From contig JANLHG010000020.1 of the NCBI GenBank assembly GCA_024654575.1, positions 55,991 to 119,990 of the forward strand: DNA of 64,000 nt, in the 5' to 3' direction. Position 1 is the stretch's first letter. The number at the start of each line of letters is the position of its first letter. Position numbers and translations under genes: made by a program. The notes under the pieces are model-generated. The model was not told where the DNA came from and did no database searches. It saw nothing but the letters and a program-made list of their open reading frames with translations. This document shows positions 1-35,630 of this stretch, one piece after another. This DNA comes from Patescibacteria group bacterium (GTDB lineage Bacteria; Patescibacteriota; Minisyncoccia; Phycocordibacterales; PALSA-1337).

Positions 1-1130
1 GCTTCGTCAGCAATTCTGGCGTTGATTCCTTTCTCAAGACAAGTCCGAGGTAAAGGAAAACTATACACACGATTACTGCATCGGTAGTATAAATGTTTGC
101 CATATTGCGGACCTTCACCTGTTCTTCTTCTACCACACCCAGCACACCAAATATTTCCCGCAATAAGATAATCATTTTTTTTAAACCTTCCCAATGTAGC
201 AAAATTGGCTTTAAGTTGAGCTCCCGCACGCTCAAAGATACTTTTGTCAGTAATTATCGCAGGAACTTTAATATTTTTCCATTCACCTATTGGCTTTAAT
301 CTTCTACTCGACTTTTTTACTTTCCTATATACGTCATTCTTTGTAGGATTTGTCGGAGCTACCCCATAAGTTTTTCCCCAATGAGCGATACCTATATATG
401 CTTCATTTCGCAGAAGTGTGCTTAAAGTACTTGTATTCCAAACTCCTCTTTTACTTTTTCTTGGCAATATATTTGATTCTTGTAGTTTTCGTACCACAGC
501 ACGAAGCGTTAATCCATCATCTGCAACTAAAGAAAATATTTGTTTGACATTATTAGCTTCATATTCATTAATTTCAAAATGTCCCACTTCATAATCTGTT
601 CCACCTTTTTTACCTTTATTTGGAATGTAACTATATCCATATGGGGCCTCACTAACCAAAACATTACCATTACTAACTCGATTATTCTTACCTATTCTAA
701 AACGCTCAGTAATCTTTGCTTTTTCATATTGAGCGAATAATCCTCGTATGCCGAACATAAGCTCATCACTTTCATTTTTTATTGGCGGCATAGTCACAAA
801 CAGAATTTCAATTCCCAACTGCTTTAATTCGTCTATAACAATCTGTTGATAGAATAATCGTCTTCCAAGTCTGTCGGGGTCGTAAATAATTACAGCTTGC
901 CATAAATGCTTTCGAGCGTCTTGACGAAGTTGATCAAGAGCTGGGCGAGCTAATATATCGCCTGACCACCCTTCGTCTAAATATTTTTTAACAATTGTGT
1001 ACTTGTCTTTTGCAAATGCATCCACTTCAAGCAGTTGAGCTTCAATCGTTTTCTGATCTTCCTGGTTTGAAGTTGAAACTCTGCCATACACAGCTACTAA
1101 TTTAATTTCTTTTGGTGTAGATTCAGTCAT
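1..1130 (-). CDS. Large serine recombinase (resolvase/invertase catalytic domain plus recombinase domain), partial; C-terminus lies beyond window start
   Basis: Manual translation of minus strand from ATG at 1130-1128 gives MTESTPKEIKLVAVYGRVSTSNQ... (catalytic Ser motif YGRVSTxxQ), continues >375 aa without stop to position 1; absent from ORF track because no stop in window. Confidence 0.8.
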   Translation of the reverse strand, partial: MTESTPKEIKLVAVYGRVSTSNQEDQKTIEAQLLEVDAFAKDKYTIVKKYLDEGWSGDILARPALDQLRQDARKHLWQAVIIYDPDRLGRRLFYQQIVIDELKQLGIEILFVTMPPIKNESDELMFGIRGLFAQYEKAKITERFRIGKNNRVSNGNVLVSEAPYGYSYIPNKGKKGGTDYEVGHFEINEYEANNVKQIFSLVADDGLTLRAVVRKLQESNILPRKSKRGVWNTSTLSTLLRNEAYIGIAHWGKTYGVAPTNPTKNDVYRKVKKSSRRLKPIGEWKNIKVPAIITDKSIFERAGAQLKANFATLGRFKKNDYLIAGNIWCAGCGRRRTGEGPQYGKHLYYRCSNRVYSFPLPRTCLEKGINARIADE

Positions 1131-1139
1131 ATTTTATTG

Positions 1140-1457
1140 TTACATTATACTACCGGTTCGATTTTTAATTACTTCATCAAATAAAATATCAAACACATCA
1201 TCAATTCGTTGTTGATAATCTTTTGCATTTTCCATCCAATATGTCACATGCACTTTTCCAATCATACATTCGTCAAAAGTCACTCTGGCTTTTACATTAA
1301 CCGAATCGGAGCAGAAAATTGAAAGTATTTCGTTATCATTAGTTTTTTTCATAATTTTATAATTTAATATTCCCTCTTTGGACCATTTCCTTATGTGTTT
1401 TAGCTTCAATGGATACACTGGGTGCGATTTAAATTCAAAACACAGGGAAAGTATCAC
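1140..1457 (-). CDS. hypothetical protein
   Basis: ORF 105 aa, co-directional just upstream of recombinase; no recognisable motif. Confidence 0.3.
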   Translation of the reverse strand: MILSLCFEFKSHPVYPLKLKHIRKWSKEGILNYKIMKKTNDNEILSIFCSDSVNVKARVTFDECMIGKVHVTYWMENAKDYQQRIDDVFDILFDEVIKNRTGSIM

Positions 1458-1526
1458 TAGGAAAGAAATGCTATTAAGAAGAGCCTGCTATAAATATTTT
1501 GTGTACATTTTTACAAGCATTAGTTG

Positions 1527-1778
1527 TTAATCTAACGATTTCACTGACTCTAAATATTCTTTTAATGCCCAATCGGTTATCTGCGACATTGTTTCGTGTC
1601 TTCGTTTAGATAATTCCTTGACTGCTTCCTTGATACTCCTATCAACGCGGATTGGCGTTGTATCTCTGAATTTATGTGCCTTTTGTAACTTTTCCCCTTT
1701 AACTATCGGCAAAACTGCCTCATTGGCTATATTTTCCATATATTTTTTTGTTAGAACTAATAAAAACCCTGTAAACAA
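1527..1778 (-). CDS. putative ribbon-helix-helix (CopG/ParD-like) DNA-binding protein; true start probably internal Met (MENIANE...)
   Basis: C-terminal segment RVDRSIKEAVKELSKRRHETMSQITDWALKEYL resembles RHH antitoxin/repressor pattern. Confidence 0.35.
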   Translation of the reverse strand: MFTGFLLVLTKKYMENIANEAVLPIVKGEKLQKAHKFRDTTPIRVDRSIKEAVKELSKRRHETMSQITDWALKEYLESVKSLD

Positions 1779-1888
1779 GCCACTATTTCTAATTTATGAG
1801 GGTGCAAACTAGAGATTTTTCCATATACATATTCATATTTAGTTTAATGTTAACATAGTCCCAAAAATGTAATCAAATCAAAAAATAA

Positions 1889-1920
1889 AAAAGCAGTTAT
1901 AAGTAAATATAACTGCTTTA
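1889..1920 (-). terminator. hairpin AAGCAGTTATA-N6-TATAACTGCTT downstream of 1935..2189
   Basis: perfect 11-bp inverted repeat flanked by A/T runs. Confidence 0.4.
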
Positions 1921-1934
1921 ATTATTTTCCACCA

Positions 1935-2189
1935 CTACCTTAACGGCGCGAATAAAAGATCATTTATAGCTTCATTTGCATCGATGTAGTTATAGCTCTC
2001 AATTTCCGCACATCTTCTTTCAATTTCGTCGGGATTATCAATGCGAGCATAAATTAAACCTATAATCGTTTTTCTTTGATTTTCAGAAATAGGTCTTTCT
2101 TCTTCACATAAATAATAATCTTCTGGTAGAACATAACTTCCTTTTTTTGGACCATCAAAACCACTAACGGCTATTGTGTTTGTTGTCAT
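1935..2189 (-). CDS. hypothetical protein
   Basis: ORF 84 aa. Confidence 0.3.
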   Translation of the reverse strand: MTTNTIAVSGFDGPKKGSYVLPEDYYLCEEERPISENQRKTIIGLIYARIDNPDEIERRCAEIESYNYIDANEAINDLLFAPLR

Positions 2190-2210
2190 AAGTATTTAAT
2201 ATATTTAATT

Positions 2211-2816
2211 TTAATAACTGCCACTTTTAAACCCAGCAATCATTTCTGATGCCTGATCCTTGGAAAGACTAGCCATTTCGCTTTCAAAACGTTCTCTTTC
2301 ATCTCCGTCAGTAACATTTGTGCTTATGAGTGAGGTTAGATAGGAAATTTGTTTTTCACTAGCAGGTTCAGGTGCGTATTCATTGACTTCTGATTTGTTA
2401 TATAGCTGATCAAGTGGAATTTCACTGTCTTTTTTGTCTGTTGCATCAAGATACAAAGCATCTAGCGTTTTTGTGGAACGAACTACTGCATCGATTAGAC
2501 TCGCATTAAACGCAGAGCGAACTGTCCTTTCAACGTATTTATTCATCCTGTTTAGCACCGCATTTCCTCTCCCAACACTCAATATGTCGTTTCCTTTCTT
2601 TAGAAAGCAGATGAATGCGATAAAGCCAGGAATATGATCTTTAAAAAGATTGGCTGTCTGTGTGTCTTCCTCTATCGTTGCAGTTAAATTGATTGTGCCA
2701 ACACTTTTTGTCATTTCTCTACTAGCTGGATGTCTTTTATCTTGGACATCAAATGCCTTACTTCTCATAATCTGTAATGGTGAAAGTACACTCGGTTGTT
2801 TATATATTGTTTTCAT
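2211..2816 (-). CDS. hypothetical protein
   Basis: ORF 201 aa, no recognisable motif. Confidence 0.35.
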   Translation of the reverse strand: MKTIYKQPSVLSPLQIMRSKAFDVQDKRHPASREMTKSVGTINLTATIEEDTQTANLFKDHIPGFIAFICFLKKGNDILSVGRGNAVLNRMNKYVERTVRSAFNASLIDAVVRSTKTLDALYLDATDKKDSEIPLDQLYNKSEVNEYAPEPASEKQISYLTSLISTNVTDGDERERFESEMASLSKDQASEMIAGFKSGSY

Positions 2817-2822
2817 AATGTT

Positions 2823-3137
2823 TTAATTAGTTATTGGTTCCACGGATTTGTAATAGTACAAATTTATTTTTCGTGGATAGCGTTGAATAATATTTCCTAA
2901 AGCGTCTTTCCTTTCGATATAAGTGACGCTTTTTAATGCTTTGCTTCCTCTCTTGGGTCTGTAACCCAAACGAAACCAAACAGAAAATGGTAGAGCATTT
3001 CTTTCTGGGGAATAATTTTTTACTTCATCCTTACCCCAGATTTTTGAAATTTGCTGAGCCACCATTTTTCTAGTCTTGGGGGAATTCTGATAGTTACTGA
3101 CCTTCGGACCTTCTAAAATCTCTTTTATAGTTTGCAT
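2823..3137 (-). CDS. hypothetical protein
   Basis: ORF 104 aa, basic. Confidence 0.3.
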   Translation of the reverse strand: MQTIKEILEGPKVSNYQNSPKTRKMVAQQISKIWGKDEVKNYSPERNALPFSVWFRLGYRPKRGSKALKSVTYIERKDALGNIIQRYPRKINLYYYKSVEPITN

Positions 3138-3235
3138 AATGTTAATAATTTAATAATAATTTTTATACGAGAGAATAACTCATATTTTGAAGTGTTGCAT
3201 CGACCTAACTTCTCAATAAAATAGTTTGGTTCGGC

Positions 3236-3365
3236 ACTGAGTATATTTAGTGAGAGGGGTACGGGGGGCGGTTTGACTGGTGCCATACTAGGTACGGCAT
3301 GATGTAGGGTAAAGATTCCTTCCGTACCCGCGAGGTTTGTTGTAGAAAGGGGTGGTTTGGTTTTA
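3236..3365. ncRNA. GC-rich intergenic island, candidate structured RNA (unclassified)
   Basis: GGTACGG / CCGTACC complementary segments and G-runs in an otherwise AT-rich intergenic region; no ORF. Confidence 0.2.
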
Positions 3366-3519
3366 TTTCTGTTTTAAAAGTGAGGGACCAAAAAAAATTC
3401 CGCAAAAAATTACAGAAAATGGGATTGTAGTTTTTAATAATGAGATGTATTATTAAAGAGTTAGTAAAATTGAATATAGTAATCTAAATCAGTGAGTAAT
3501 CGCTGACATGATGAAAAGT

Positions 3520-3587
3520 CCAGACACGGGTAGAAAACCTATCATATTAGGATCGCCGTGTCTGGCCGTACCAGAGAAATTTGGTAC
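3520..3587 (+). promoter_or_regulatory. Two adjacent perfect hairpins (CCAGACACGG-N26-CCGTGTCTGG; GTACCA-N8-TGGTAC) in the leader of the 3642.. gene
   Basis: 10-bp and 6-bp perfect inverted repeats read directly from sequence. Confidence 0.35.
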
Positions 3588-3641
3588 TGGAGAACCGAAA
3601 GGAACTCGCTTAATGTGGTAGGTTTTTTGCGTGTAGAAATT

Positions 3642-3899
3642 ATGAATAATCTATTAGAACAAATTTCTAAAAAACTAGATATCAAACCAAATCAGAATCT
3701 TATTGGTTTGACTATAGGATTAATTACCGTAGGTGTAGCGGAATTCTTTTCTCTCAGATATCTATTTGTATTCGGATCAATAACTACAATTATATTTTTA
3801 CTATCCGTAGAGTCCACCACACGCTCTTATACAAAAAATTATTGTTTAAATAAAATGATTGAAATTTCAGATAAGAAAAAAGTTAATAACATACTATAA
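3642..3899 (+). CDS. small membrane protein (start trimmed to MNNLLEQ...)
   Basis: hydrophobic TM segments; ORF-track start 3558 overlaps hairpin so internal Met preferred. Confidence 0.35.
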   Translation: MNNLLEQISKKLDIKPNQNLIGLTIGLITVGVAEFFSLRYLFVFGSITTIIFLLSVESTTRSYTKNYCLNKMIEISDKKKVNNIL

Positions 3900-3904
3900 T
3901 TATA

Positions 3905-4570
3905 ATGAAAGAAAAAGAAACTATATTAATGCAAGATCAAATTTTATCTAAAAATTGTAATGCCCTTTTGGAGTGGAGAAAACAATTTTCTAGAAAAGAG
4001 TATCCTCAACATGTGGTTAGAAAGATGTTCTATGATTTTTATACCGATCAAGAGCTCTGGCCATTTATTGTAGATATTTTTAATGATATGAGTGACGTTA
4101 GAACTCTTCTAAACTTACGAATATGTGAACATATTGAATACATTGATGAAGTAAACTTCTTATTTGAAGCAAGAAAGAAGTTAAAAACGGAAAAAATTCT
4201 ACCAAGATTAGATGCTTTGTTAAATGAAAATATTCCAGTTGTAAATAATATACGTTTTTCAGATTATTCTCAGATGATAGAAAATGCAATAAATGGTAAT
4301 GATTCTGATCTTGAAAAAATAGAGTATCATTTCATGTTCTATAAGATGACATCAGATCTTATTTCCTTTTGGGCCGCCGCTGGGATTTATGGAAAGAAAT
4401 GGGATGATGCAATGTTTTTTGTTACAGGAATGTTGGTGGGAGGAAAAATTGAAACTTTTGAGGATGTTTTTATGAAGTTTAGTAAGATTTCAGGTCTATA
4501 TCTTGCTGGGATTAATACTACTACTGGCAAAAATTTTGGGAAATATAAGCCTCTCCCTCCTTTTAAATAA
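3905..4570 (+). CDS. hypothetical protein
   Basis: ORF 221 aa. Confidence 0.4.
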   Translation: MKEKETILMQDQILSKNCNALLEWRKQFSRKEYPQHVVRKMFYDFYTDQELWPFIVDIFNDMSDVRTLLNLRICEHIEYIDEVNFLFEARKKLKTEKILPRLDALLNENIPVVNNIRFSDYSQMIENAINGNDSDLEKIEYHFMFYKMTSDLISFWAAAGIYGKKWDDAMFFVTGMLVGGKIETFEDVFMKFSKISGLYLAGINTTTGKNFGKYKPLPPFK

Positions 4571-4578
4571 TATAAAAT

Positions 4579-5157
4579 ATGGAAGATTCTATAAATTCAT
4601 TTCTTGGTAGTCACAGATTACTAGTTATATTAGTGGGAGGATTTATTATTATAGGACCTTTTGTAATTCCGTCTATAAAAGATTATTTTTCTTCAGATAG
4701 TAAGTTAAGACGTAAAAAAAGTCGAGAAAAAAGAAACTACGAACTAAAACAACAAATACAGGAGAAACTAATGCTTACTAAAGAAACTGAAAACAGAAGA
4801 AAAATAGAGCGACAAAAGATACAAGAACAAAGACAAAGAATAAAGGATGGGGAACACCAAAAATACCTTGATCTGAGAAAGCAAATCGAGAAAATGCCGA
4901 TTTATCAGAGATGGAAACAAGAAATAATGAACAAGTGTGGAAGCAAGTGTCAGATGTGTGGATCTAGTAATAATCTACAAGTTCATCACCTTGATTCGTT
5001 CTATTCAATCATAAAGCAGTATAATATTACCTCAATAGAAAAAGCTTTTGAATGTAAACAACTGTGGAATGTCGATAATGGAGAAATCCTTTGTAAAAAC
5101 TGTCACGATAAAATGGAAAGTTCAATTAATAGGCAGACTTTAATGTATAATACGTAA
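4579..5157 (+). CDS. membrane-anchored HNH endonuclease domain protein
   Basis: N-terminal TM helix, Lys/Arg/Glu-rich coiled-coil region, C-terminal CQMCGSSNNLQVHHLDSF...NGEILCKNCHDK (C-x2-C...HH...N...C-x2-C-H HNH signature). Confidence 0.6.
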   Translation: MEDSINSFLGSHRLLVILVGGFIIIGPFVIPSIKDYFSSDSKLRRKKSREKRNYELKQQIQEKLMLTKETENRRKIERQKIQEQRQRIKDGEHQKYLDLRKQIEKMPIYQRWKQEIMNKCGSKCQMCGSSNNLQVHHLDSFYSIIKQYNITSIEKAFECKQLWNVDNGEILCKNCHDKMESSINRQTLMYNT

Positions 5158-5159
5158 GC

Positions 5160-6077
5160 ATGAAAACTCTATACAAAAAAATAAATCAGCTTTGGTTGCG
5201 GTGTCGAAAGTGGAGCGAGATTAGTATAATCGGTGATTTTGTTATTAACACAGGAAGGATTGTTTTCATCATTACTATTTTCTTCTCAATCTTTTATATC
5301 ATTACTGTGATAGAGATATATAATGAAAATAAATTTCCTCAACTATCCCCCTCGAATAATTCTAAATCTACTACAGACAATAACTGCTCTGTTGCTGGTA
5401 TCAATTTACATGGGACGATAGTCACATATATTCCAGTATATAGTGATAATGATTCTTCATATGACGATATGATTGCAAGCGAAAGAGTTATCTGGGCCAT
5501 TAGACAGGCAAACAATGATTCAAAGATAAAAGCGCTTGTAGTTGAGGTAGATTCTATCGGAGGATATCCTGTAGCAGGTGAAGAAGTAGCTAATGCTATA
5601 AAAGATAGTAAAAAACCAGTTGTAGGATTTATAAGAGAAACAGGAGCTTCAGCTGCTTATTGGGCTATCAGTAGTGCTGACAAAATATTCGCTTCAGCAA
5701 ATTCTGATGTGGGGAGTATAGGAGTCACTCGTTCCTATTTAAGTAATGCTGAGAAAAATATTAAAGACGGCTATGTGTATGAAGATTTGAGTGTGGGTAA
5801 ATATAAGGACTCTGGAAACCCAGACAAAGTGCTAACAAACGAAGAAAGGGCTTTGTTTTTGAGAGATTCAAATATCATATATGAGAATTTTATTAAAGCT
5901 GTGTCACAAAATCGTAAAATTCCAATAGAAAAGGTAAGAAAGTTCGCTGACGGTTCAACTTTTTTAGGTGAAAAAGCAAAATCACTTGGACTGATAGATG
6001 AGATTGGTGGAATAAATGAAGTTGAAAAATACCTTGAGGAAATAACGGGAGAGAAACCAGAGATTTGTTGGCAATAA
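5160..6077 (+). CDS. sppA: S49 family peptidase (signal peptide peptidase SppA-like; same family as phage prohead proteases)
   Basis: N-terminal TM, then VVEVDSIGGYPVAGEEVANAI...GASAAYWAIS...GSIGV motifs typical of SppA/ClpP-fold serine peptidases. Confidence 0.7.
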   Translation: MKTLYKKINQLWLRCRKWSEISIIGDFVINTGRIVFIITIFFSIFYIITVIEIYNENKFPQLSPSNNSKSTTDNNCSVAGINLHGTIVTYIPVYSDNDSSYDDMIASERVIWAIRQANNDSKIKALVVEVDSIGGYPVAGEEVANAIKDSKKPVVGFIRETGASAAYWAISSADKIFASANSDVGSIGVTRSYLSNAEKNIKDGYVYEDLSVGKYKDSGNPDKVLTNEERALFLRDSNIIYENFIKAVSQNRKIPIEKVRKFADGSTFLGEKAKSLGLIDEIGGINEVEKYLEEITGEKPEICWQ

Positions 6078-6101
6078 AAAGGACGATGATATTATAGTGA
6101 A

Positions 6102-6671
6102 ATGACAACATCACTTATAGAGAACTCTTTTGCTATAACTACTCATTTATTAAAAAAAGATCTCAAAAAAGCACGACAAAAAACGCCTATAAATGGATAT
6201 TTGAATATATTCCATAATAATAAGCCATCTATAGCGGACTATTTAATAGAATATGACGGCGAAAATACATATCTTGTGATTAATTTTGCCGAAAAGTCAC
6301 AGAAAATCCTATTATCAGAACACCAATTAACTTTCGGAACACGAACATATCTAAATTGCGCTTGCGGACATAGGACCAATTCTCTTTATTTGAATAAAGG
6401 AATTTTTGCTTGTAAAAAATGCCATAATTTACACTATCAATCTACATCAATAAACCGTAATACCTTGCATGGTAAATTTCTTTACCAACAGAATCAGATA
6501 TTGAAAATAATAAATATGAGAGAAAGTATGAATCGTATTTTCTATAAATCCCGCTACAGTAAGCCATTTGTGCGCTGGCTAGATCTATGTGGAAAAGCAG
6601 GACTGATTAAGGAGGTAGAAGATGCGCAAGCACTTATTACGGCTATAAATAACTATCGACAGCAAGTTTAG
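6102..6671 (+). CDS. hypothetical protein with Cys/His cluster (CACGH...CKKCH)
   Basis: ORF 189 aa, putative zinc-binding motif. Confidence 0.35.
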   Translation: MTTSLIENSFAITTHLLKKDLKKARQKTPINGYLNIFHNNKPSIADYLIEYDGENTYLVINFAEKSQKILLSEHQLTFGTRTYLNCACGHRTNSLYLNKGIFACKKCHNLHYQSTSINRNTLHGKFLYQQNQILKIINMRESMNRIFYKSRYSKPFVRWLDLCGKAGLIKEVEDAQALITAINNYRQQV

Positions 6672-6949
6672 ATAAATTCAATAGTTTTTTGATATATAAA
6701 AAGTGGGAATGCCGATATTTCGGTAAATATGGCTGTATCAAGCCGTGTTTTTGATTTTTATAATTGGTTGACAATTCTAAAAAGTACTATGGTACACTTA
6801 AATTAATTATGAATATAAATTATTTAGGTATGAATTTTTGTTTCTTTACAATTCAAATTCCAAAATATGGAATAAAGGGTAACCATATTAAACATCCCTT
6901 TTAAATGGTGAGGATAATGTCCAGTAATAATTGCCTGGCTTTGAAACAC

Positions 6950-7210
6950 CGAAGAAATGCCGTGATTACGAATAGATTGTTGGGCCAAGAATCCTGACAT
7001 GCTATGGTATCGCATTTGGATCGTCCATTGTTGTGAAAGCTGGGAGAACAGCGAGCTTCACGGATATTGCCCAAGCTACCCAGCCGTTTGAACAGTGTGT
7101 GATCTAAATGAGGAGTTAGTTGGCTAAAGTGCCCGTTGCTTTCACACGGGATTTGTAGTGGGTTGTCTAAAAGTTTCGTCCACCTTAAATGGTGCCTTCA
7201 TTTTTAAGAT
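6950..7210. ncRNA. GC-enriched non-coding segment, candidate structured RNA (unclassified)
   Basis: 850-bp gap without credible ORF; local GC rise; hairpins CCGTGA...TCACGG and CCCGT-N9-ACGGG. Confidence 0.2.
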
Positions 7211-7526
7211 TTTGACTACAGCTAGGGAAGAATTAATGATGCACAACTGAACTGAAAGGAATTTGATATATAAAGACGATTGCTACTTGAAAAAACAGAA
7301 ACAAAGAAGAAATTGGACGAAAAGATTTAGCTAAACGCCCAATTTTATAGCACATATACACTTATATGCTTATTTGTTTCTAGTTTTACATCCCAAGCAA
7401 GACAACCACTTCAGCTTTTTTCTAGGGAAGGGGTAATCCGTCCTGCCTAAATAGTGCTGTATAGAAACTTCAATAAACCTATATGTAAATTAGAAGCAAA
7501 TTATTAATTAAGCTAACTTTACTCAA

Positions 7527-7778
7527 ATGACAATAAAAAACGCAAGAATGAATGTAGGTGTCAGGCAAAAACTGGCATCCTTACCTCGTACTCGATGTGC
7601 TAAATGTAATAGTGTTAAATCTTACACGAACCCTATGGCTAAATGCTGGGAATGTAAGAAAAAGTTTTGTTTTGACGATATTCGAAGCGGACAATTCAAA
7701 CAAGGTATGAAGCGTATAGACCAGTTAAGAAGAATTTGTGATGAGTGCAAAGAGAAATATGGATATGATGGGATATAA
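7527..7778 (+). CDS. small zinc-ribbon protein (three CxxC pairs)
   Basis: CAKCN...CWECKKKFC...CDEC. Confidence 0.4.
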   Translation: MTIKNARMNVGVRQKLASLPRTRCAKCNSVKSYTNPMAKCWECKKKFCFDDIRSGQFKQGMKRIDQLRRICDECKEKYGYDGI

Positions 7779-7790
7779 CTTTTGTAAAAT

Positions 7791-8264
7791 TCAATTTATC
7801 GTTGATGGTCGCAACTGCCAATCTTTATACAGATATCTTTTAAATGATCCTGGAAAATAAGGTTTCAACCATAAAATAGCTTGATTATCAGCATCTCTTT
7901 CCATCTTTGTATTAAGAACGCCATCTTCTGTATCTTCAATTCTTCTAAACCCATGTCTTTTATATACATGTGCAACTTCGTGGGCAATAGCAAACGCTAT
8001 CCTTTTTTCACTTTTGGACCAAAGTGAATTAGATAATATAATTAATCCCCGCTTACCTTTAAGACGAAAATCATTTCTTGCTATATACTCTCCCCTATCT
8101 TTCTTATCTAGAGATATAAAAACACATTTTTCAATCACAAAATCAACTATATTCTCTGGTAGATACGATAAAGCTTTTGCTAAAGGGTTTATATTTTCCT
8201 CAGAAATGAAATCCTTGAAATACACACAGTCCATTTCATTAGTAACTTCTCTTTGTGTATACAT
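7791..8264 (-). CDS. ImmA/IrrE-family-like zinc metallopeptidase
   Basis: AIAHEVAHVYKRH (HExxH) followed by ...ERDADNQA; size 157 aa. Confidence 0.5.
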   Translation of the reverse strand: MYTQREVTNEMDCVYFKDFISEENINPLAKALSYLPENIVDFVIEKCVFISLDKKDRGEYIARNDFRLKGKRGLIILSNSLWSKSEKRIAFAIAHEVAHVYKRHGFRRIEDTEDGVLNTKMERDADNQAILWLKPYFPGSFKRYLYKDWQLRPSTIN

Positions 8265-8271
8265 AAAAGTA

Positions 8272-8469
8272 TTATAGCGTATTTAATTCATTTTTCTCTT
8301 TCATTAACCTAATCTCTCTTTTAAGTGCTATGCCTGTTAATTTGAGAAGTTTTACACCAATATCATTTATTGTCTTATCATCAAGTTTAGCTAAATATTC
8401 TTTTCCAAAATCTTTTCTCAATATTTCCTTTAATTTATTAAATGCTTTTGGGGATAGTTTAGTAGTCAT
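8272..8469 (-). CDS. hypothetical protein
   Basis: ORF 65 aa, overlaps next gene by 4 nt. Confidence 0.3.
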   Translation of the reverse strand: MTTKLSPKAFNKLKEILRKDFGKEYLAKLDDKTINDIGVKLLKLTGIALKREIRLMKEKNELNTL

Positions 8470-8774
8470 TTTTTAACTTTATTATGATATTGTAATACCT
8501 TTTCTGCTGGCGATAGGCCATCAAGAGCTTCGTGAGGAAAGTAATTCCAGGCATCGCTTACTAATTCAAGAATGTCGCTTAATTCTGAAGCATCTCCGCC
8601 TCTATCAAACATTGCCACAGCTTTCATCATGTCGTCATTATCTTCTTCAAAAAAAATGACATCTGCTATATCTTGCAAGCCAAAATCACTTTCAGTTTTC
8701 TTTAGCATTTCCACTAGTTCCTTTTCAATCTCTTTCCTTCTTTTTATAATTTGTTTTTTTGATTCAATTTGCAT
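8466..8774 (-). CDS. hypothetical acidic protein
   Basis: ORF 102 aa. Confidence 0.3.
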   Translation of the reverse strand: MQIESKKQIIKRRKEIEKELVEMLKKTESDFGLQDIADVIFFEEDNDDMMKAVAMFDRGGDASELSDILELVSDAWNYFPHEALDGLSPAEKVLQYHNKVKK

Positions 8775-8838
8775 AAATTAAAATATATTTACTATTTTAT
8801 AATAACATCGACAACTTGTTTTTGAATAAAAAGATTGC

Positions 8839-9315
8839 TCAAAAAAATGTAAGAAAAGATGAAATAATCGCAACACTCACTGGTACCCATATTTGTAGTA
8901 GTTTTTCTCTTTGTTTTTCTGTTTTGTATCTAAAGAAACAAAACCAATGATCAGTAAAGTCATAAAAAGATGATTGTATCGTTATTATTTTATTGTAATG
9001 TTTTTCTAATAACTCTTGTGTGAAAATTAGATGATCTATTTTTTCTTCGTTAAGGTCCTTAGAATTTATTACTAAACAATCACCAACATGATAAATTTTA
9101 TCATTGCCACCAGTTTCAACTGTAACTAAATGTTCCCGTTCCAGAAAATCTAGAGTATAAAATATTTCATCTAATTCGCTAAGAGATTTCAGGTTTTTAC
9201 TACATATTCCATTATCACAAACAATTAAGTTTAATTCTTGACGACTAAGAAGTTCATTGACTCTTTTTTGTCGTCCAGTTTTTAATAAATCAATTAGATT
9301 CTTATTTAATTTCAT
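8839..9315 (-). CDS. hypothetical protein (C-terminal TM)
   Basis: ORF 158 aa immediately downstream of GIY-YIG gene. Confidence 0.35.
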   Translation of the reverse strand: MKLNKNLIDLLKTGRQKRVNELLSRQELNLIVCDNGICSKNLKSLSELDEIFYTLDFLEREHLVTVETGGNDKIYHVGDCLVINSKDLNEEKIDHLIFTQELLEKHYNKIITIQSSFYDFTDHWFCFFRYKTEKQREKLLQIWVPVSVAIISSFLTFF

Positions 9316-9320
9316 AAAAT

Positions 9321-10160
9321 TTACTTCCTAACATTTTCATCAAGTGAATGTCCTTGATTATCTTTCCAAGTATCCCAGCCGTTACAAATACCACCAATAA
9401 TTACATTTCCAGCAGAACTAGGGCTGGTAAATATGTAATCCTTAGTAAAGATATAAGAATTTTCGTCGTGATCTTTGAGAATACCGTCTTCAATCAACCT
9501 GTTTTTTAGTTGTTTACTAGAATTTCTTAAAAAAGACGGCTGTTCTTTTTTTCGAGCAAGCGAATTTTTATAAACTATAAATTCTTCTGTAGGAAGTAAT
9601 GTCCCATGCCCATCTGCACCCTTCAAGGTTACATATTTCATAGAATACATAACGCCACCAATTTGTTTTTTCGAATCTTCAAATACTAGATAGCCAAACA
9701 ATCCAGCCACAAGCTTGATATGTTCGAAACATTGAAAGGCGACTATCTTCTGTGCTTCAGAAAGCCTATTTTCTCTTGGTATTGCAGTATTAGAAATATC
9801 ATATCGATCTGCCTTCTTGGCAGTATCCACAGAAATACTTTCAAGATACTTTATAAGGGCACTGTCCAAACTACCAACGAATATAAAGGCAACATTCCAC
9901 TCATCTTCTTCTCTGTCAGCATCATGCGATATTAGTCTCCCAATAACATTTTCTGATTGGCCAATATATACTGATGGTCGTTCCTTTCCTTCACCGAATA
10001 AAAAATATAATCCAGGTTGTCCTACTTCTTCTCTAGCACGAAGTTCCGCAAGTTTTCCTCTTGGGGCAATAAACACCTTTCCAGTTCTTCCTTCCATTTC
10101 AATTAGCCGAAGTCCCTTTGGGTTATCATTCAGTAGAATTGTTGTTATTACTTGTGCCAT
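9321..10160 (-). CDS. GIY-YIG nuclease family protein with C-terminal uncharacterised domain
   Basis: GLYFLFGEGKERPSVYIGQSENVIGRLISH matches GIY-x(9-11)-YIG plus conserved Arg. Confidence 0.6.
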   Translation of the reverse strand: MAQVITTILLNDNPKGLRLIEMEGRTGKVFIAPRGKLAELRAREEVGQPGLYFLFGEGKERPSVYIGQSENVIGRLISHDADREEDEWNVAFIFVGSLDSALIKYLESISVDTAKKADRYDISNTAIPRENRLSEAQKIVAFQCFEHIKLVAGLFGYLVFEDSKKQIGGVMYSMKYVTLKGADGHGTLLPTEEFIVYKNSLARKKEQPSFLRNSSKQLKNRLIEDGILKDHDENSYIFTKDYIFTSPSSAGNVIIGGICNGWDTWKDNQGHSLDENVRK

Positions 10161-10203
10161 GAAATTATTTAATAGGATTATATCACTTACTTCACTAATT
10201 TGA

Positions 10204-11043
10204 TTATTTTAATTTTTTTGCAATTTCGTATTCTTTTTTAGTAAGCTCTAAATTGCATTTTTTACATTTATATAAATCCGAAAAAGTTCTACTTGAACCA
10301 TATAAACTAGCAGCTTGTGGAAAAATGTCTGAATCTGATCCATCTAAAGAAAAGTCATATGCACCACAACGTGGACATTCTTCGCCAGTAATACTATACC
10401 CATAAGCAGAACTACGTGTATACATTGGAATAGCGAGACCGCCAAAAACCATTGTCTCCAGTGTATTTTTAATTGGTGTTATCTTTGTTTTGACTTCTTC
10501 AATTAAAACTTTCTCTAGTTCTTCTTCAGAGTATTTCTTTTTAGGTTTATTAGCTTTTATTAAATCCTTACCGAATATAGATATTGCTTGAGTAGATATT
10601 TTTTCCCATACTGTTCCTATTTTTTTAACTATATTTTCTCTGTCAGATAAAATACCAGCATCCGACTTATATCCATGAACAAAATGATTTCTAACCTTAT
10701 AAATATCAATTAAGACCTGCATCTCATCATCAGAAAAATCATTTTTGAACATTAATTTATATCTATCGAGGGTTTCTCTTATTCTAATAGTCTCAATATT
10801 CAATTCCTTTCCTTTTATAATTGCCACAAGAGAGTCATTCTCTTTGATTTTAGTATTTTCATAAACCAAAACTGGATTTTCATCATGTAGTTTAATTTTT
10901 AAAATTTTTTCTGTTACAATACAAAAAGAAACCACTATTTCTGGCAAGTCCTCTTGTTTGGTTGGAACATCAAAGAGATACTCGCCGACAACTGAATAGA
11001 GTCTAAGAAGATATTTATAATTTTTATCATTTTTTTCTTTCAT
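10204..11043 (-). CDS. putative HEPN-domain protein with C-terminal zinc ribbon
   Basis: IDIYKVRNHFVHGY (R-x4-H-x-Y HEPN-like motif); C-terminal CPRCG...CKKCN. Confidence 0.45.
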   Translation of the reverse strand: MKEKNDKNYKYLLRLYSVVGEYLFDVPTKQEDLPEIVVSFCIVTEKILKIKLHDENPVLVYENTKIKENDSLVAIIKGKELNIETIRIRETLDRYKLMFKNDFSDDEMQVLIDIYKVRNHFVHGYKSDAGILSDRENIVKKIGTVWEKISTQAISIFGKDLIKANKPKKKYSEEELEKVLIEEVKTKITPIKNTLETMVFGGLAIPMYTRSSAYGYSITGEECPRCGAYDFSLDGSDSDIFPQAASLYGSSRTFSDLYKCKKCNLELTKKEYEIAKKLK

Positions 11044-11048
11044 AATTT

Positions 11049-11981
11049 TTATGAAGGCTTTTTTTCTGATGTATCGATTTTCATATTCTCTATTTTCTCA
11101 GGACCAACATCTTGAATCTTTGCTTCCTCCTTTTTGGTTGGGAGAATCTTATCTATAATTTCAAATATCAATTCTGTAGGTACAACCCTTACTAATCCTG
11201 TTTGTTCAGTAAATACTATCCGTGGTTCTCCTGTCTGTTGGCTAATAGCAATATCAGAGTAGGTTTCTCCAGAACTAATAACTCCAATTAATCCTGCCGA
11301 AGAATTACTTTGAGTGCCTGTAATCGCCACTACCTCAGGCTTGTTGATAACAGGACCTCCACTATTTCCAGGATAAGCAGAGGCATCTATATAAAAGAAA
11401 CAATCTTCTAATACTTCTTCATCAACTCTAGCTATTATCCCTTGTCTCACAATTACGAAATTTCTTGTCTTGCCACTTATGCGCATCGGAAATCCAAGCA
11501 CAAACAATCCATCTCCAGTTGAAATATTTTCTATTGAGAAATCTTTAGCATAAAATATACTGTCCTCTCTAAAAAAGTAAAAATTTATTTTTGCATCATT
11601 AATTGCTACAGCATTAATAGGAAGAACAGCTAAATCAACTTTTTCACTCTCATGCATAAGCCAAAGAGGACTTTTGTCCTCTTTTAATAAAGGTACTTTA
11701 AAGTAATGACTTTTACTATCTAGGGTATTAAACCTAAAAAAGACTTCCTTTAATAGCTCTTTTGTTTTTGGATTTTGGAAAACATGTCTATTTGTTACAA
11801 CAAATAATTTAAAAAGGGGTTGTTTTTGATCATTTTCTCCCACTTTCTTACCAACTAAAAATCCTGTTGCAATTGAAATTTTACTTAATACTCCAGTAGT
11901 GTCTTTATTTTCTACCTCAATTGATACAACTGAATTTAAATATTGTGGTGGTATTAGAGACATAATTTCTATTCCTCCCAA
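11049..11981 (-). CDS. trypsin-like (S1 family) serine protease
   Basis: catalytic triad context TNRHV (His), DLAVL (Asp), GNSGGPV (Ser). Confidence 0.7.
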   Translation of the reverse strand: MGGIEIMSLIPPQYLNSVVSIEVENKDTTGVLSKISIATGFLVGKKVGENDQKQPLFKLFVVTNRHVFQNPKTKELLKEVFFRFNTLDSKSHYFKVPLLKEDKSPLWLMHESEKVDLAVLPINAVAINDAKINFYFFREDSIFYAKDFSIENISTGDGLFVLGFPMRISGKTRNFVIVRQGIIARVDEEVLEDCFFYIDASAYPGNSGGPVINKPEVVAITGTQSNSSAGLIGVISSGETYSDIAISQQTGEPRIVFTEQTGLVRVVPTELIFEIIDKILPTKKEEAKIQDVGPEKIENMKIDTSEKKPS

Positions 11982-14482
11982 AGTTTAGCTAGGGTGTCTT
12001 TAGTCTTTTGTTCATAAATCTCGATCAGTTTTTTATTACCTTCGACGAGAGTACGCTCCGATTCAATACGTTCCACGATTTGTTTTTGAATTCCGAGAGG
12101 TGGAAGAGGAATTTCAAAGCTAGAAACTTGGGCCAAAGATAAATTACTTTGAGCAACGCCCACTTTCAAACCAAGAATTTGGTTCTGAATCATATCTGAT
12201 CTTAAAACTTGTTCGAGGTATTTTGAATTTAGTTCTTTTTTTGGTGAAATTATTGCAAGTGCTTGGTTAGTATTGGCAGGTAATACAGAAGAATCTACCA
12301 AAGCAACTCGTCCAAGAGCGCCGGCGATTGAAAACAAGACATCATTTTCTTCCAACTGAGATCGTTTTAGAGATTCGTTACATTTCTGATTTATATGGGC
12401 AAATTTCTTCTTGATAAAATATCCATCATTATCAATTGATTCTATTTTAATAAAGTTAATTCCACTTTCTTGAAACTCAAATCCATTTGTGGTGGGAGTT
12501 GTCCCTTTTGTTACTCTGTTTGATACTTCTTCTAATTTCACCTTCTTCCACGAAGGATCAATTACTATGATTGGCTTCCAACTTGAAATGATTTGCTTAG
12601 CGCCGGCGATGATGTTTTGGTAGCCGTCTAGTTCAGCGACAATTTGCTGTTGGATTTCTAATGGCGGAATAGGAATTTTTTGATTTGCAATAGTTACATG
12701 CCCTAAATGCTTTTGAATCCCGCCCTTCATTTGCTGTTGTAATAAACCTTGGAATAAATCACTCTCCAGAATATTAAAGAGATATTTTTGATCCACCTTG
12801 TTTTTATCAAAAGAAATTCTAAATAAATTATTGCTTAATATCCCTGGAACAGCCATAAAAGCCCTGCCTGGTGTGCCGGTATTTGCCATAACAAGGTCTT
12901 CAACAGTGACTTCCTTGGTTGCATATATATCTTTAACATAAATTGATTTATCCTCGCCTTTAAAATCTTGTATATATAAATACCTTTTGTAACCACTTCT
13001 AAATTCATTTAACTGCTTTTCTTTAGGTATTTGTACACCCTGAGTAAATTCACAAACATCCCCCAACCTAACTATTGGCCATTTGGCATTGGTGTAATCT
13101 GTTGCTATGCGATAGCGATCTCCAGAAAGATTGTAGTCGCCAGATTCAGTAATCTTTTCTTTTTTCACTAACCAAGCAAAAAAACTACCGTCAGATATAA
13201 GTTGATTTTTTGTTCCCGTTTCAATAGCAATTTTCTGTGCTTTAAGAACATCAAGAGCTGCACCATCATCAGTTAAATCATTTATATGACTATCAGGAAG
13301 TGGTCGTCGACGAGCACCTAAATCAAAACCATCACTTTCAACTTTAATAAATAATATCTCATCTGTTTTCTTTGCTATCTCATTATCAAAAAATAGAATA
13401 CTGGTCTTTACTCCTGCATAAGGATTAAATACACCTTGTGGTAAAGAGACAACAGCATAGAGTCCATCTTCTACAAGATTCTTACGAAGTTGCTTATGTG
13501 CTGTACCGGACTGAAAAATAATACCTTCGGGAACAATAATACCTGCTCGGCCTTGAGGCCTTAGATGGTTCATTATGTAATCCACAAATAACACTTCGGA
13601 CCGGCTAGACTGAATACTAAACTTACTATGGGTGCTAACCCCGCCTTTTGGCGACATAAATGGGGGGTTGGCGAGAATTACAGAGAATTTGTCGCCCCAA
13701 CGTTCATCCATAGAGAGCGTGTCATATTGAAATATTTTTGGATTCTTGAATTGGTGTAGATACATATTGACTTGAGCTATACGGACCATTCCAGGGTCTA
13801 TGTCGTAGCCTTCAAAATTACCCATCAAGTTTTTACGCTGATCAGGGGTCAGAGGTTTTTCCTTTTTCTTTGGATCATTTTTACCGTCGTGTTGCTCGAG
13901 TATGTGTTTGTAGGCACTCACCAAGAATCCTCCAGTACCGCAGGCAGGGTCCAATACTTTGTCTTCCTGTGTCGGATCTACTACATCCACCATAAAATCA
14001 ATAATATGGCGTGGGGTGCGGAATTGTCCCGCATCGCCTTGAGATGACATGATAGAGAGCAGATATTCGTAGGCATTACCCAATTCTTCGGGGTGTGAAT
14101 AATCAAAGTAATTAATTTCCTTCAAAAATAAGCCTAGCACTTCAGGGCTTCGATACGGCAAAAATGCGGACTTAAAAATCTCACGAAAAAGTTGTGGAAG
14201 TTGTTTTGATTCAGAAAACTTTATAAGGGCTTCACTATAGATATTCATTCGCTCTTGATTGCCTATACGAGTATCAGCAAGACGAGTCCACGCATACTGC
14301 TCCAAGTCGCCTACAAAGAACGAGGGATCTCCACCCTGCTTAATCGCAGACTGGTCCATATCATCCATAAACTTGTAGATAAGAGCATTGGTGATCTGAT
14401 CTATTTGAGAAGTTGGATTTGGGACCACGCCGACAAGGACTTGGCGAGCGGCGTCTATATGTCTTTTTGTTTCGGTGTTCAT
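11969..14482 (-). CDS. hsdM/hsdS: Type I restriction-modification fused HsdM (N6-adenine MTase) - HsdS (specificity, two TRDs) polypeptide
   Basis: DPACGTGGFL (motif I), NPPF (motif IV); C-terminal half has two target-recognition domains with conserved spacers IPIPPLEIQQQIV and IPLPPLGIQKQIV; single 837-aa ORF. Confidence 0.85.
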   Translation of the reverse strand: MNTETKRHIDAARQVLVGVVPNPTSQIDQITNALIYKFMDDMDQSAIKQGGDPSFFVGDLEQYAWTRLADTRIGNQERMNIYSEALIKFSESKQLPQLFREIFKSAFLPYRSPEVLGLFLKEINYFDYSHPEELGNAYEYLLSIMSSQGDAGQFRTPRHIIDFMVDVVDPTQEDKVLDPACGTGGFLVSAYKHILEQHDGKNDPKKKEKPLTPDQRKNLMGNFEGYDIDPGMVRIAQVNMYLHQFKNPKIFQYDTLSMDERWGDKFSVILANPPFMSPKGGVSTHSKFSIQSSRSEVLFVDYIMNHLRPQGRAGIIVPEGIIFQSGTAHKQLRKNLVEDGLYAVVSLPQGVFNPYAGVKTSILFFDNEIAKKTDEILFIKVESDGFDLGARRRPLPDSHINDLTDDGAALDVLKAQKIAIETGTKNQLISDGSFFAWLVKKEKITESGDYNLSGDRYRIATDYTNAKWPIVRLGDVCEFTQGVQIPKEKQLNEFRSGYKRYLYIQDFKGEDKSIYVKDIYATKEVTVEDLVMANTGTPGRAFMAVPGILSNNLFRISFDKNKVDQKYLFNILESDLFQGLLQQQMKGGIQKHLGHVTIANQKIPIPPLEIQQQIVAELDGYQNIIAGAKQIISSWKPIIVIDPSWKKVKLEEVSNRVTKGTTPTTNGFEFQESGINFIKIESIDNDGYFIKKKFAHINQKCNESLKRSQLEENDVLFSIAGALGRVALVDSSVLPANTNQALAIISPKKELNSKYLEQVLRSDMIQNQILGLKVGVAQSNLSLAQVSSFEIPLPPLGIQKQIVERIESERTLVEGNKKLIEIYEQKTKDTLAKLWEE

Positions 14483-14486
14483 AGTT

Positions 14487-14936: not shown

Positions 14937-14939
14937 ATT

Positions 14940-30841: not shown

Positions 30842-30856
30842 CATAATCAAAAAACC

Positions 30857-35610: not shown

Positions 35611-35630
35611 AAAAATACAATAAAACCAAA

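Follow-up and report, generated by a model that had tools for sequence, protein, structure and literature searches.

What kind of DNA occupies the left end of a 64,000-nucleotide stretch from a Patescibacteria group bacterium (contig JANLHG010000020.1 of assembly GCA_024654575.1, positions 55,991 to 119,990; hereafter the window), and how is it related to the defence island on its right? An initial annotation took positions 1-8300 for a degraded integrative element or prophage remnant that may have delivered the island or be parked in it. The analysis described here, based on a listing of open reading frames (ORFs), on domain searches (Pfam, PHROGs, NCBIfam, PADLOC, Rfam and PDB) and on a comparison with related loci and contigs (L001-L226), points to a different answer. 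With a probability of roughly 0.75, window 1 to about 6.7 kb represents the backbone, conserved among relatives, of an element that integrates site-specifically in Patescibacteria (Paceibacteria-type bacteria of the candidate phyla radiation, CPR), is inserted at the start of the ychF gene and probably extends through the defence genes. The element family, with the structured RNA LOOT as its hallmark, is widespread and undescribed.

The backbone of this recurrent element corresponds to window 1-6671. It consists of two divergent arms with LOOT between them: five small minus-strand genes plus a large serine recombinase (LSR) gene on one side, and a plus-strand operon starting at 3642 on the other. 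The features of the two arms, and the spacer that follows, are:

1..1130, minus strand: LSR, N-terminal 376 of 567 residues, running off the left edge (Pfam)
1140..1457, minus strand: small conserved gene just upstream of the LSR, with homologues adjoining the LSR in 8 loci
1527..1778, minus strand: protein with a ribbon-helix-helix (RHH)-like pattern, in a variable slot; homologue in L012 only
1935..2189, minus strand: 84-aa backbone protein; homologues in L006, L010 and L011
2211..2816, minus strand: 201-aa backbone protein, candidate ERF/Rad52-type single-strand annealing protein
2823..3137, minus strand: 104-aa backbone protein with which the recombinase arm begins, divergent from LOOT
3481..3628, plus strand: LOOT RNA (RF03000, 3481-3607) with a 3' extension (3613-3628) (Rfam, covariation)
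3642..3899, plus strand: 85-aa small membrane protein, first gene of the LOOT-led arm
3905..4570, plus strand: 221-aa variable accessory protein
4579..5157, plus strand: membrane-anchored HNH nuclease-like protein, accessory (Pfam, PHROG)
5160..6077, plus strand: membrane-anchored S49 peptidase, recurrent accessory (Pfam, NCBIfam, PHROG)
6102..6671, plus strand: 189-aa zinc-ribbon backbone protein, last conserved gene of the LOOT-led arm
6672..7526: ORF-free spacer of about 856 bp

The LSR gene is cut by the window edge, as initially annotated. Its product matches the Pfam domains Resolvase (PF00239, 5.5e-29, residues 12-156), Recombinase (PF07508, 1.1e-16) and Zn_ribbon_recom (PF13408, 1.5e-4). 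The last match scores 22.5 bits in the window fragment, under the 25.3 cut-off, and is listed as present in the precomputed domains of the full-length protein (P0241, 567 aa), which a protein search identified through 100% identity over the 376 in-window residues. The resolvase domain carries the catalytic motif VYGRVSTSNQ with the serine nucleophile; this, together with the Recombinase domain, the zinc beta-ribbon, the long C-terminal region and a length above 400 aa, identifies the protein as a large serine recombinase; its own family has more than 1000 members at E <= 1e-60. The notion of an integrative mobile element driven by an LSR thus stands. A scan with the LSR fragment, taking one genome per species, returned ten loci, eight in Patescibacteria metagenome-assembled genomes (57-73% identity) and two in Bacteroidota (54%). 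In the Bacteroidota (Chitinophagaceae) loci, L007 and L008, the LSR gene (9920-11680; product 46-54% identical to the CPR family) is followed by an N6-methylase-like gene and not by ychF, implying that the LSR clade crosses phyla with a different target.

The genes beside the LSR recur with it. The same order and orientation (LSR, 105-, 84-, 201- and 104-aa genes, LOOT, 189-aa gene) is found in L004, L006, L010, L011 and L012-14, and the gene order is repeated in at least eight independent Patescibacteria contigs. Six window genes (those for the 105-, 84-, 201-, 104- and 189-aa proteins and the HNH protein) recur beside the LSR gene in L004, L006 and L010, with order and orientation unchanged. 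The L011 and L012-14 contigs, reached through homologues of the 189- and 201-aa proteins, show the same layout; L095 has the core common to the family with the LSR moved to the opposite end, and L009 and L019 share LSR, PrimPol and LOOT with the family. A profile census counted the small LSR-adjacent gene in 8 independent elements, the 104-aa gene in 7, and the 201- and 189-aa genes in 6 each. Databases hold 146 homologues of the 189-aa protein and 137 of the 201-aa protein, almost all unnamed and without Pfam domains; the top matches are the window proteins as already on record (NUV47_03465 / MCR4334755.1 and NUV47_03435 / MCR4334749.1, respectively). The small genes described initially as orphans (105-, 84-, 201-, 104- and 189-aa products) therefore have syntenic homologues in other CPR contigs. 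All backbone genes of the window are as long as these homologues, so that nothing indicates decay, and the term "degraded" has to be abandoned in favour of a conserved, compact family.

The insertion site is apparent from the relatives. In every related locus with sequence past the LSR (12 loci: L001-L006, L009-L012, L019 and L226), the next gene is ychF, recognised by its Pfam domains MMR_HSR1 and YchF-GTPase_C and followed by housekeeping genes, for example those for a methyltransferase, Sua5, a DUF5671 protein and LeuRS. The ychF ATG lies inside the LSR gene in these loci, 20-70 nt ahead of the LSR stop codon, and the LSR frame runs for about 20 codons through the P-loop coding region of ychF in another frame, with a variable stop position. 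At occupied sites the ychF leader has 8 codons (MSSSSLSI-GIVG or similar), with the exception of L019, which has 6 (MSSLSI). At empty sites the CPR-type leader has 3-6 codons (MSLSI-GIVG or similar) and is preceded by AT-rich non-coding DNA and a nearby upstream ORF. Occupied sites thus show 3 extra N-terminal ychF codons as compared to the short native start. In the simplest reading, the crossover is located at the ychF start or inside its first two to three codons, and the element donates a new ATG and three codons.

The corresponding junction of the window's own element falls to the left of position 1. Neither exact look-ups of the window's 201-aa, S49, 104-aa and 189-aa proteins nor an exact 40-mer scan of metagenome contigs led to the flanking DNA. 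As judged from P0241, the LSR gene extends about 574 nt in that direction and there overlaps the ychF start. The C-terminus of P0241 (...NVNIKFKTGHRHRRITKCRKKYTF) has the pattern of the relatives' read-through tails. A codon-compatibility check indicated that the tail RHRRITKCRKKYTF, with its stop codon, can be encoded by DNA whose +1 frame gives GIVGLPNVGKSTLF, the P-loop of YchF; among random 15-mers of LSR composition, 0/200,000 were +1-compatible with GIVGLPNVGKSTLF. This compatibility suggests that the window's element also abuts ychF, some 0.5 kb left of position 1, a placement deduced from a protein tail and not from a DNA reading.

Occupancy of the site is patchy. In a metagenome scan with YchF, 78/80 ychF loci were without an LSR. 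When the count was restricted to CPR-type ychF loci with at least 1.7 kb of upstream sequence (n = 26), one intact LSR (L019) and one stub (L076) were found, so that insertion concerns about 2 of 26 loci. Conservation of the region across related genomes, which would have told against the initial annotation, is not what these numbers describe. The occupied genomes carry the labels Nomurabacteria, Minisyncoccia, Yanofskybacteria, Paceibacterota and Saccharibacteria. Locus L076 illustrates how the element decays: only the last 60 or so LSR codons (5138-5323) are left, ahead of a ychF gene (5265) that has kept the 8-codon, element-type start. The 566-637 segment of L015 resembles this scar. Both scars suggest that the end of the element becomes indispensable for ychF expression. 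Taken together, these features can be accommodated in a model in which the LSR would insert the element at the very start of ychF, a housekeeping GTPase/ATPase gene. Following insertion, the LSR ORF would continue through some 20 codons of ychF, out of frame with it, the element would supply a new ATG and three extra codons, and the native ychF promoter and ATG would be pushed to the element's far end.

The other end of ychF deserves a separate remark. Comparison of L012 (1-2460) with L013 (1-753) and L014 (1-2507) showed 99.9% identity of the element and complete divergence exactly at the ychF stop codon. Past ychF, L014 encodes proteins in which Phage_rep_O and AAA_24 domains were recognised. 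The 3' end of ychF may accordingly represent a second site of variation or insertion.

The initial annotation overlooked the RNA located between the two arms. LOOT (3481-3607, plus strand) scores 57.2 bits against a gathering score of 46.4 and is full length (model positions 1-121). It exceeds the gathering score in 9/9 elements in which the divergent region is covered (window, L004, L006, L009, L010, L011, L012, L019 and L095), and in all nine it is placed between the arms, pointing away from the recombinase arm. The nine copies were aligned together with 35 nt of 3' flank. Of the positions proposed to pair (42 pairs), 90.4% are paired across the nine sequences and 34 pairs have changed on both sides; 0/500 shuffles reached as high a value, and slid controls were 37-43% paired. 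The alignment supports the hairpins of the Rfam model. It also contains a new long-range helix, outside the 121-position model, in which the loop of the second hairpin (3532-3545) pairs with 3613-3628, directly followed by a U-run. This helix alone is 92% paired, with 8/13 pairs covarying. Since its 5' strand lies within another conserved hairpin, a pseudoknot or an alternative fold is implied.

The sequences around LOOT are conserved in arrangement as well. A TGnTATnAT motif, resembling an extended -10, is conserved 20-40 nt upstream of LOOT, and in 9/9 copies the U-run is followed, 10-70 nt further, by the start of an ORF on the same strand; in the window, the LOOT extension and the next start codon lie 13 nt apart. 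Such an order, in which a structured leader with a terminator-like end stands between promoter and operon, speaks in favour of a leader or attenuator acting in cis. A simple promoter/terminator scanner flagged neither feature, as expected in the case of the terminator, whose stem has a long insert. We infer that LOOT is a transcribed leader or attenuator whose pseudoknotted, terminator-like 3' end would gate the arm that it precedes; it could possibly be a stable regulatory RNA as well.

The occurrence of LOOT is not limited to the ychF elements. An nhmmer profile detected it in L103 and in three IMG/VR contigs (L172, L173 and L186). An IUPAC pattern scan of IMG/VR for LOOT gave mostly chance matches, 3/120 surviving the nhmmer check. 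In each of the three IMG/VR contigs, LOOT is close to an LSR gene encoding 426-460 aa. Contig L173 (7,813 bp) has the LSR gene at 8-1345 (minus strand), LOOT at 1506-1644 (plus strand) and, at 5394-6887 (minus strand), a gene for a terminase large subunit (TerL) with 27% identity to TerL of phage SuMu (E 4e-28); in L172 and L186, LOOT lies beside the LSR gene and no structural gene was recognised. L103 contains an island between uvrABC and polA, with LOOT at 8969-9120 (minus strand), a gene of the 201-aa family at 10001-10615 (plus strand), two tyrosine integrase genes, a Peptidase_S8 and AAA pair and no LSR, an arrangement which implies that the LOOT/ERF-like module combines with different recombinases. 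LOOT is, then, a mobile-element RNA of these bacteria, not confined to ychF elements, and at least one of its carriers looks like a phage. The motif stems from the 224-motif survey of Weinberg et al. 2017 (PMC5737381); in the literature library searched, no paper on its function or genetic context was found.

The recombinase arm runs from the 104-aa gene through the ERF/Rad52-like gene, genes for small proteins, a variable slot and the LSR-adjacent gene to the LSR. The AlphaFold model of the 201-aa protein (pLDDT 82) comprises an alpha-beta-beta-beta-long-helix domain and a C-terminal three-helix, DUF3072-like domain, and Pfam DUF3072 was matched by one member of the family. When this model was compared with viral models by Foldseek, the best-ranked matches were ERF and Rad52 proteins of phages, with E values from 1e-5 to 1e-2 and low TM-scores. 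With moderate confidence, the protein can thus be considered a candidate ERF/Rad52-type annealing protein. The 104-aa protein has no Pfam or PDB match, and profiles of the 201-, 104- and 189-aa families matched no PDB sequence. The 1140-1457 gene has no Pfam or PHROG match; its homologues are found directly upstream of the LSR gene in L002, L004, L005, L006, L010, L011, L012 and L226. Its true start is probably internal, giving a product of some 75-85 aa, which is a candidate recombination directionality factor or regulator. The variable slot, at window position 1527-1778, is occupied by a PrimPol-helicase gene in L005, L006, L009 and L226 and by other genes in other relatives. In the window, this position harbours the gene initially annotated as an RHH regulator, a reading that a plausible sequence pattern and a weak phrog_5118 match favour and that no Pfam or PDB match backs.

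The opposite arm begins with LOOT, continues with variable membrane or secreted proteins and ends with the conserved zinc-ribbon protein. The 85-aa protein (3642-3899) has a hydrophobic 19-mer (Kyte-Doolittle 1.98) and a homologue at the same position in L012; the 221-aa protein (3905-4570) has no homologue in the related loci examined. The membrane HNH endonuclease of the initial annotation is confirmed: the 4579-5157 product matches Pfam HNH just above the cut-off (22.6 bits vs 21.4) as well as PHROG HNH families, has a strongly hydrophobic, transmembrane-like N-terminal 19-mer, and has a homologue in the L010 element. The S49 peptidase (5160-6077; Pfam 2.8e-32) had been assigned to the prohead-protease family of phages. 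It does match PHROG 53 (head maturation protease; 1.5e-46), but it is anchored in the membrane, as indicated by an N-terminal hydrophobic 19-mer (Kyte-Doolittle 2.56), and it passes, marginally, the NCBIfam cut-off for SppA_dom (SppA 36K type, TIGR00706; 155.9 bits vs 155.45). Its neighbours are the HNH and 189-aa proteins, with no head gene, portal or capsid, nearby, and its homologue in L011 (E 1.1e-67) is encoded in the other arm. With homologues in L011, L010 and L012, respectively, the S49, HNH and RHH-like genes are recurrent accessories. The 189-aa protein contains an invariant CxC...CxxC; its model (pLDDT 89) has no fold match in PDB.

Past the 189-aa gene, an ORF-free spacer is found not only in the window but also in L011 (726 bp, 10562-11286), L012 (1042 bp, 10509-11549) and L095 (750 bp, 10571-11320), with no sequence similarity between elements. 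The spacer of L012 contains several 23-27-nt direct repeats resembling iterons. That of the window (6672-7526) was considered as a structured RNA or a conserved origin, and rejected: it has no Rfam match, a fold z-score of -0.79, no inter-element similarity and weak repeats. The defence genes follow directly to the right, after the Cys-rich protein, the HEXXH peptidase and small genes:

7527..17507, mostly minus strand: probable cargo (Pfam, PADLOC)
7527..7778, plus strand: Cys-rich zinc-finger protein, 83 aa
7791..8264: HEXXH metallopeptidase
11969..14482, minus strand: HsdM-S fusion of a type I restriction-modification (R-M) system
14940..17507, minus strand: HsdR of the type I R-M system

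The defence block proper, on the minus strand, specifies a DUF4357 protein of the PDC-S14 type (PADLOC, 2.9e-73), a trypsin-like protease of the PDC-S45 type (1e-24) and the type I R-M system, so that the segment does abut a defence island. Several zinc-ribbon proteins had been noticed in the segment, and the Cys-rich products of 6102-6671 and 7527-7778 fit this description. The HEXXH protein is a metallopeptidase but cannot be equated with ImmA/IrrE: no PF06114 match was obtained at E <= 0.01, and the matches are weak ones to Peptidase_M48 (2.8e-4) and PADLOC capP (1.7e-6). Its 65-aa neighbour has no Pfam match. Overall, most of the genes listed in the initial annotation were confirmed by ORFs and domains, RHH and ImmA/IrrE being the weaker calls.

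Defence or R-M genes, differing in kind, lie past the 189-aa gene in 6/6 elements. Besides PDC-S14, PDC-S45 and type I R-M in the window, they include PD-(D/E)XK, NOV_C and SNF2 genes in L006, a D12 methylase gene in L010, D12 methylase and HATPase_c genes in L012, and DUF2779, RmuC and DUF4011 helicase genes in L011. Two further cases are L009, with a DNA methyltransferase gene at the same position, and L226, in which genes for Shedu SduA_C and TaqI_C lie immediately upstream of the block formed by PrimPol, small gene and LSR and share its strand. At empty sites, 0/10 have defence genes upstream of ychF and the largest upstream ORF is always metabolic or housekeeping. The difference (6/6 vs 0/10) has p = 1/8008 in Fisher's exact test. 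As the ychF start is the fixed point of insertion, anything between ychF and the first host gene was inserted there. In addition, the L095 LSR gene lies past the 189-aa gene and the spacer, indicating that the spacer side is internal to the element. The defence and restriction genes past the 189-aa gene are thus probably cargo, which would travel with the element and vary from copy to copy; of the two possibilities initially offered for the island, delivered or parked in, the comparative data favour the former. The insert in the window probably reaches at least 17.5 kb.

The best surviving alternative is that the LSR element and the defence island are independent, with the element ending after the 189-aa gene and the region upstream of ychF acting as a defence hotspot. 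Sequence conservation between elements does stop at the end of the 189-aa gene, where a 0.7-1 kb ORF-free spacer follows, and no far att site was found past the island; furthermore, serine recombinases are described as defence-island markers in two publications (PMC12632615, PMC13552941). A hotspot that exists only where the element is present is, on the other hand, what the empty sites delineate, their housekeeping genes extending up to ychF. Independence is also difficult to reconcile with the internal position of the spacer region in L095, with the placement of the Shedu and TaqI_C genes in L226, and with a candidate for the displaced ychF start past the defence genes of L011. In the latter locus, a 115-bp spacer separates the last defence gene from a PAP2 gene. 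Within it, behind the terminator hairpin belonging to PAP2, the heptamer with which native ychF genes canonically start, ATGTCTC, is present as its reverse complement. This could possibly be the displaced start, in which case the element would measure about 16 kb. Independence of the two parts therefore appears unlikely.

Several observations weigh against an element inserted at ychF and carrying the island. The window's ychF junction is outside the window and deduced from the protein tail only. The far end was not located: displaced ychF starts (GACAT) sought in the window's intergenic regions gave none above chance, and the L011 candidate for a far junction rests on a single 7-mer. Neither symmetry nor a repeat of att half-sites was found; scans with 50-mers, made in 7 loci to find the LSR-proximal junction repeated in inverted or direct orientation, yielded nothing above chance, nor did scanning the P-arm sequences of four relatives against the window. 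A closely related pair of empty and occupied ychF sites was sought and none was found, so that no exact insert length is given here. No circular or excised form was seen, and mobility at the present day is accordingly presumptive. The defence genes could be secondary insertions beside the element rather than carried by it. Finally, the role proposed for LOOT derives from its position only, and Rfam files LOOT as a small RNA gene.

Other landmarks were examined on the far side of the island. No ychF fragment was detected there by tblastn. The context of empty ychF sites is not conserved, and so offered no host gene as an anchor, and the PAP2/DUF347 neighbours of L011 are not found beside any empty ychF. 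Past 17.5 kb, the window contains an odd tRNA-like gene and some 20 kb of accessory-looking genes; clear housekeeping genes begin at about 38 kb. A CAP-domain match at 48.8-49.6 kb was discarded as a boundary, the domain being common and housekeeping genes lying in between. The tRNA-like gene (Rfam tRNA, 18253-18355, plus strand, 54.8 bits) was missed by ARAGORN. It has a 32-nt insertion in the variable-loop region and an apparent AGU anticodon, and is nested in perfect 12-nt inverted repeats, CAGAGGAAGTAA / TTACTTCCTCTG (flanks 18225-18375). Situated in a 1.2-kb gap right after the type I R-M genes, it could mark the island boundary. Further along are two adjacent genes for SET-domain proteins of 126 and 136 aa (30461-31267, plus strand), low in G+C and unusual for bacterial cargo, and a second R-M-like cluster of 25-28% G+C (34834-37498, minus strand) in which two N6_N4 DNA methylase genes, one with a RAMA domain, flank a 264-aa ORF. 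This cluster sits just before tRNA genes at 38.1-38.9 kb. At 38104-38187 (plus strand), ARAGORN predicts a tRNA-Asp with the unusual anticodon 'atc'; no Rfam tRNA reached the gathering threshold at this position, and the call may be false or degenerate.

Could the element depend on, or descend from, a phage? Pfam searches of the ORFs tested from 1 to about 51 kb, a few small ORFs remaining unscanned, and PHROG searches of 1140-6671 returned no structural or packaging gene, the S49 peptidase being the only match of a structural-module type. Relatives of the 189- and 201-aa proteins were absent from 2.9 million IMG/VR contigs as far as the patterns used in this pattern-limited search can tell, and the LSR found in IMG/VR only generic LSRs (29-32% identity). 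A phage connection may nonetheless exist, given the phage-type ERF-like protein and the presence of LOOT and an LSR on a terminase-encoding IMG/VR contig. One way to picture it is a satellite similar to phage-inducible chromosomal islands (PICIs) or P4, mobilised by a CPR helper phage, with LOOT as an RNA immunity or regulatory factor shared with the helper or aimed at it. A size of 7-16 kb with an integrase, the PrimPol-helicase replication module of some relatives, the ERF-like protein, the lack of structural genes, the defence cargo and the LOOT copy on the terminase-bearing contig would all suit a satellite. Against it, no genes for capsid-size redirection, packaging (small terminase, cos/pac) or helper sensing were recognised and no helper phage or packaging signal was identified, while the window copy is without a recognisable replicase and L173 shares with the family LOOT and a distant LSR (about 28% identity) but not the backbone proteins. 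A satellite nature is therefore doubtful.

The prophage remnant of the initial annotation is the least supported reading. It would have a temperate CPR phage integrate by means of the LSR and then lose its structural genes, keeping the integrase, the regulators and the head-protease gene. In its favour are the PHROG 53 match and the approximately 30% identity of the S49 protein to phage S49 proteins, the frequency of ERF-like proteins and HNH nucleases in phages, and the joint presence of LOOT, LSR and terminase large subunit in L173. Random decay, however, is not expected to leave the same compact backbone, devoid of capsid, portal, terminase and tail genes, in at least eight independent contigs; the architecture is stable and recurs intact, its genes are full length, and actual decay looks different, L076 retaining the 3' stub of the LSR gene only. 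The S49 protein itself, membrane-anchored, at the SppA cut-off and found in different places in two elements, does not plead for a head module, and no IMG/VR relatives of the 189- and 201-aa proteins were found with the patterns used. Decay from a prophage is thus very improbable.

That the LSR-ychF pair might be a fixed, domesticated locus, inherited vertically in a CPR clade and using the recombinase in a host role such as control of ychF expression, is hardly credible: although the element supplies the ychF start codon, LSR and YchF identities vary roughly in parallel when loci are compared, and the modified start outlives the element in L076, only about 2/26 CPR-type ychF loci are occupied, the occupied genomes span the Nomurabacteria, Minisyncoccia, Yanofskybacteria, Paceibacterota and Saccharibacteria labels, cargo and accessory genes differ in every copy, and the Bacteroidota LSRs (46-54% identity) are not beside ychF.

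An element inserted at ychF, with LOOT between its arms and defence genes as probable cargo, bears on more general questions. Mobile elements of CPR bacteria are barely characterised, and how bacteria with such tiny genomes acquire defence systems is unclear. The LSR tail overlapping ychF, the 104-, 201- and 189-aa proteins and LOOT provide markers with which the family can be searched for, and an orphan Rfam RNA gains a concrete genetic context. That insertion rebuilds the beginning of a conserved gene explains why some genomes have YchF N-termini three codons longer and LSR stub scars. These LSRs could also interest genome engineers, since their natural target, at the start and P-loop of ychF, is defined and highly conserved. 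One may speculate, quite tentatively, that LOOT is the regulatory heart of an abundant and previously unrecognised class of CPR mobile elements and related temperate phages: a pseudoknotted-terminator leader, acting as an RNA switch or immunity factor, would decide on expression of the second operon, while the elements would take over both the promoter and the start codon of ychF, a gene of the essential type, so that the host could not do without their 3' end, and would spread defence systems among ultra-small bacteria otherwise poor in them.

Some traits of the element are reminiscent of systems known from other bacteria. In mycobacteriophages with integration-dependent immunity, attP is situated within a gene or at its end, integration alters the C-terminus of the repressor, and the integrase has a degradation tag. 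The integrated LSR ORF likewise reads into host DNA, its last 20 or so residues being dictated by the host. The gene affected in those phages is that of the repressor; here, nothing shows a regulatory role for the LSR tail. In P4, a small RNA from the leader of an operon controls transcription by termination and serves immunity. P4 and PICI satellites resemble the present elements in being compact and integrase-bearing, in having no capsid genes, in the operon-leader RNA in the case of P4, and, for some members, in the primase-type replicase. They differ from them by the use of a tyrosine rather than a serine recombinase, and no helper, packaging or capsid-remodelling genes were recognised here. 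In the staphylococcal cassette chromosome (SCC) elements, LSRs of the Ccr type promote insertion at the end of rlmH/orfX; these elements have no structural phage genes, a variable cargo and, in some cases, primase/helicase genes. Insertion by an LSR at the edge of a housekeeping gene, lack of structural genes and variability of cargo are common to both, and the best NCBIfam match of the window LSR is to CcrB. The scores (CcrB 87.7 bits vs a cut-off of 900, CcrC 53.1 vs 900, CcrA 34.8 vs 700) indicate that it is not a Ccr orthologue. The present elements are further distinguished by targeting the 5' end of a gene, whose start is rebuilt, and by unrelated backbone proteins. With respect to the LOOT entry in Rfam, the novelty consists in the association of this RNA with a defined mobile backbone and serine recombinases, in its location immediately upstream of an operon, and in the extra covarying helix and U-run.

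The closest precedent is offered by the LSR-encoding pipolins of Actinobacteria, bimodular, defence-carrying integrative elements for which ychF is a reported integration site (PMC11551731). The window element is devoid of the PolB domain (Pfam) of piPolB, which defines pipolins; some of its relatives have PrimPol-helicase instead, and L005 and L226 encode a small DNA_pol_B_thumb protein. It belongs to a different phylum, Patescibacteria, and has a structured RNA, LOOT, as part of its core. The two groups have in common integration driven by an LSR, ychF as the target (in one subgroup of pipolins) and a small core joined to a varying reservoir of defence genes.

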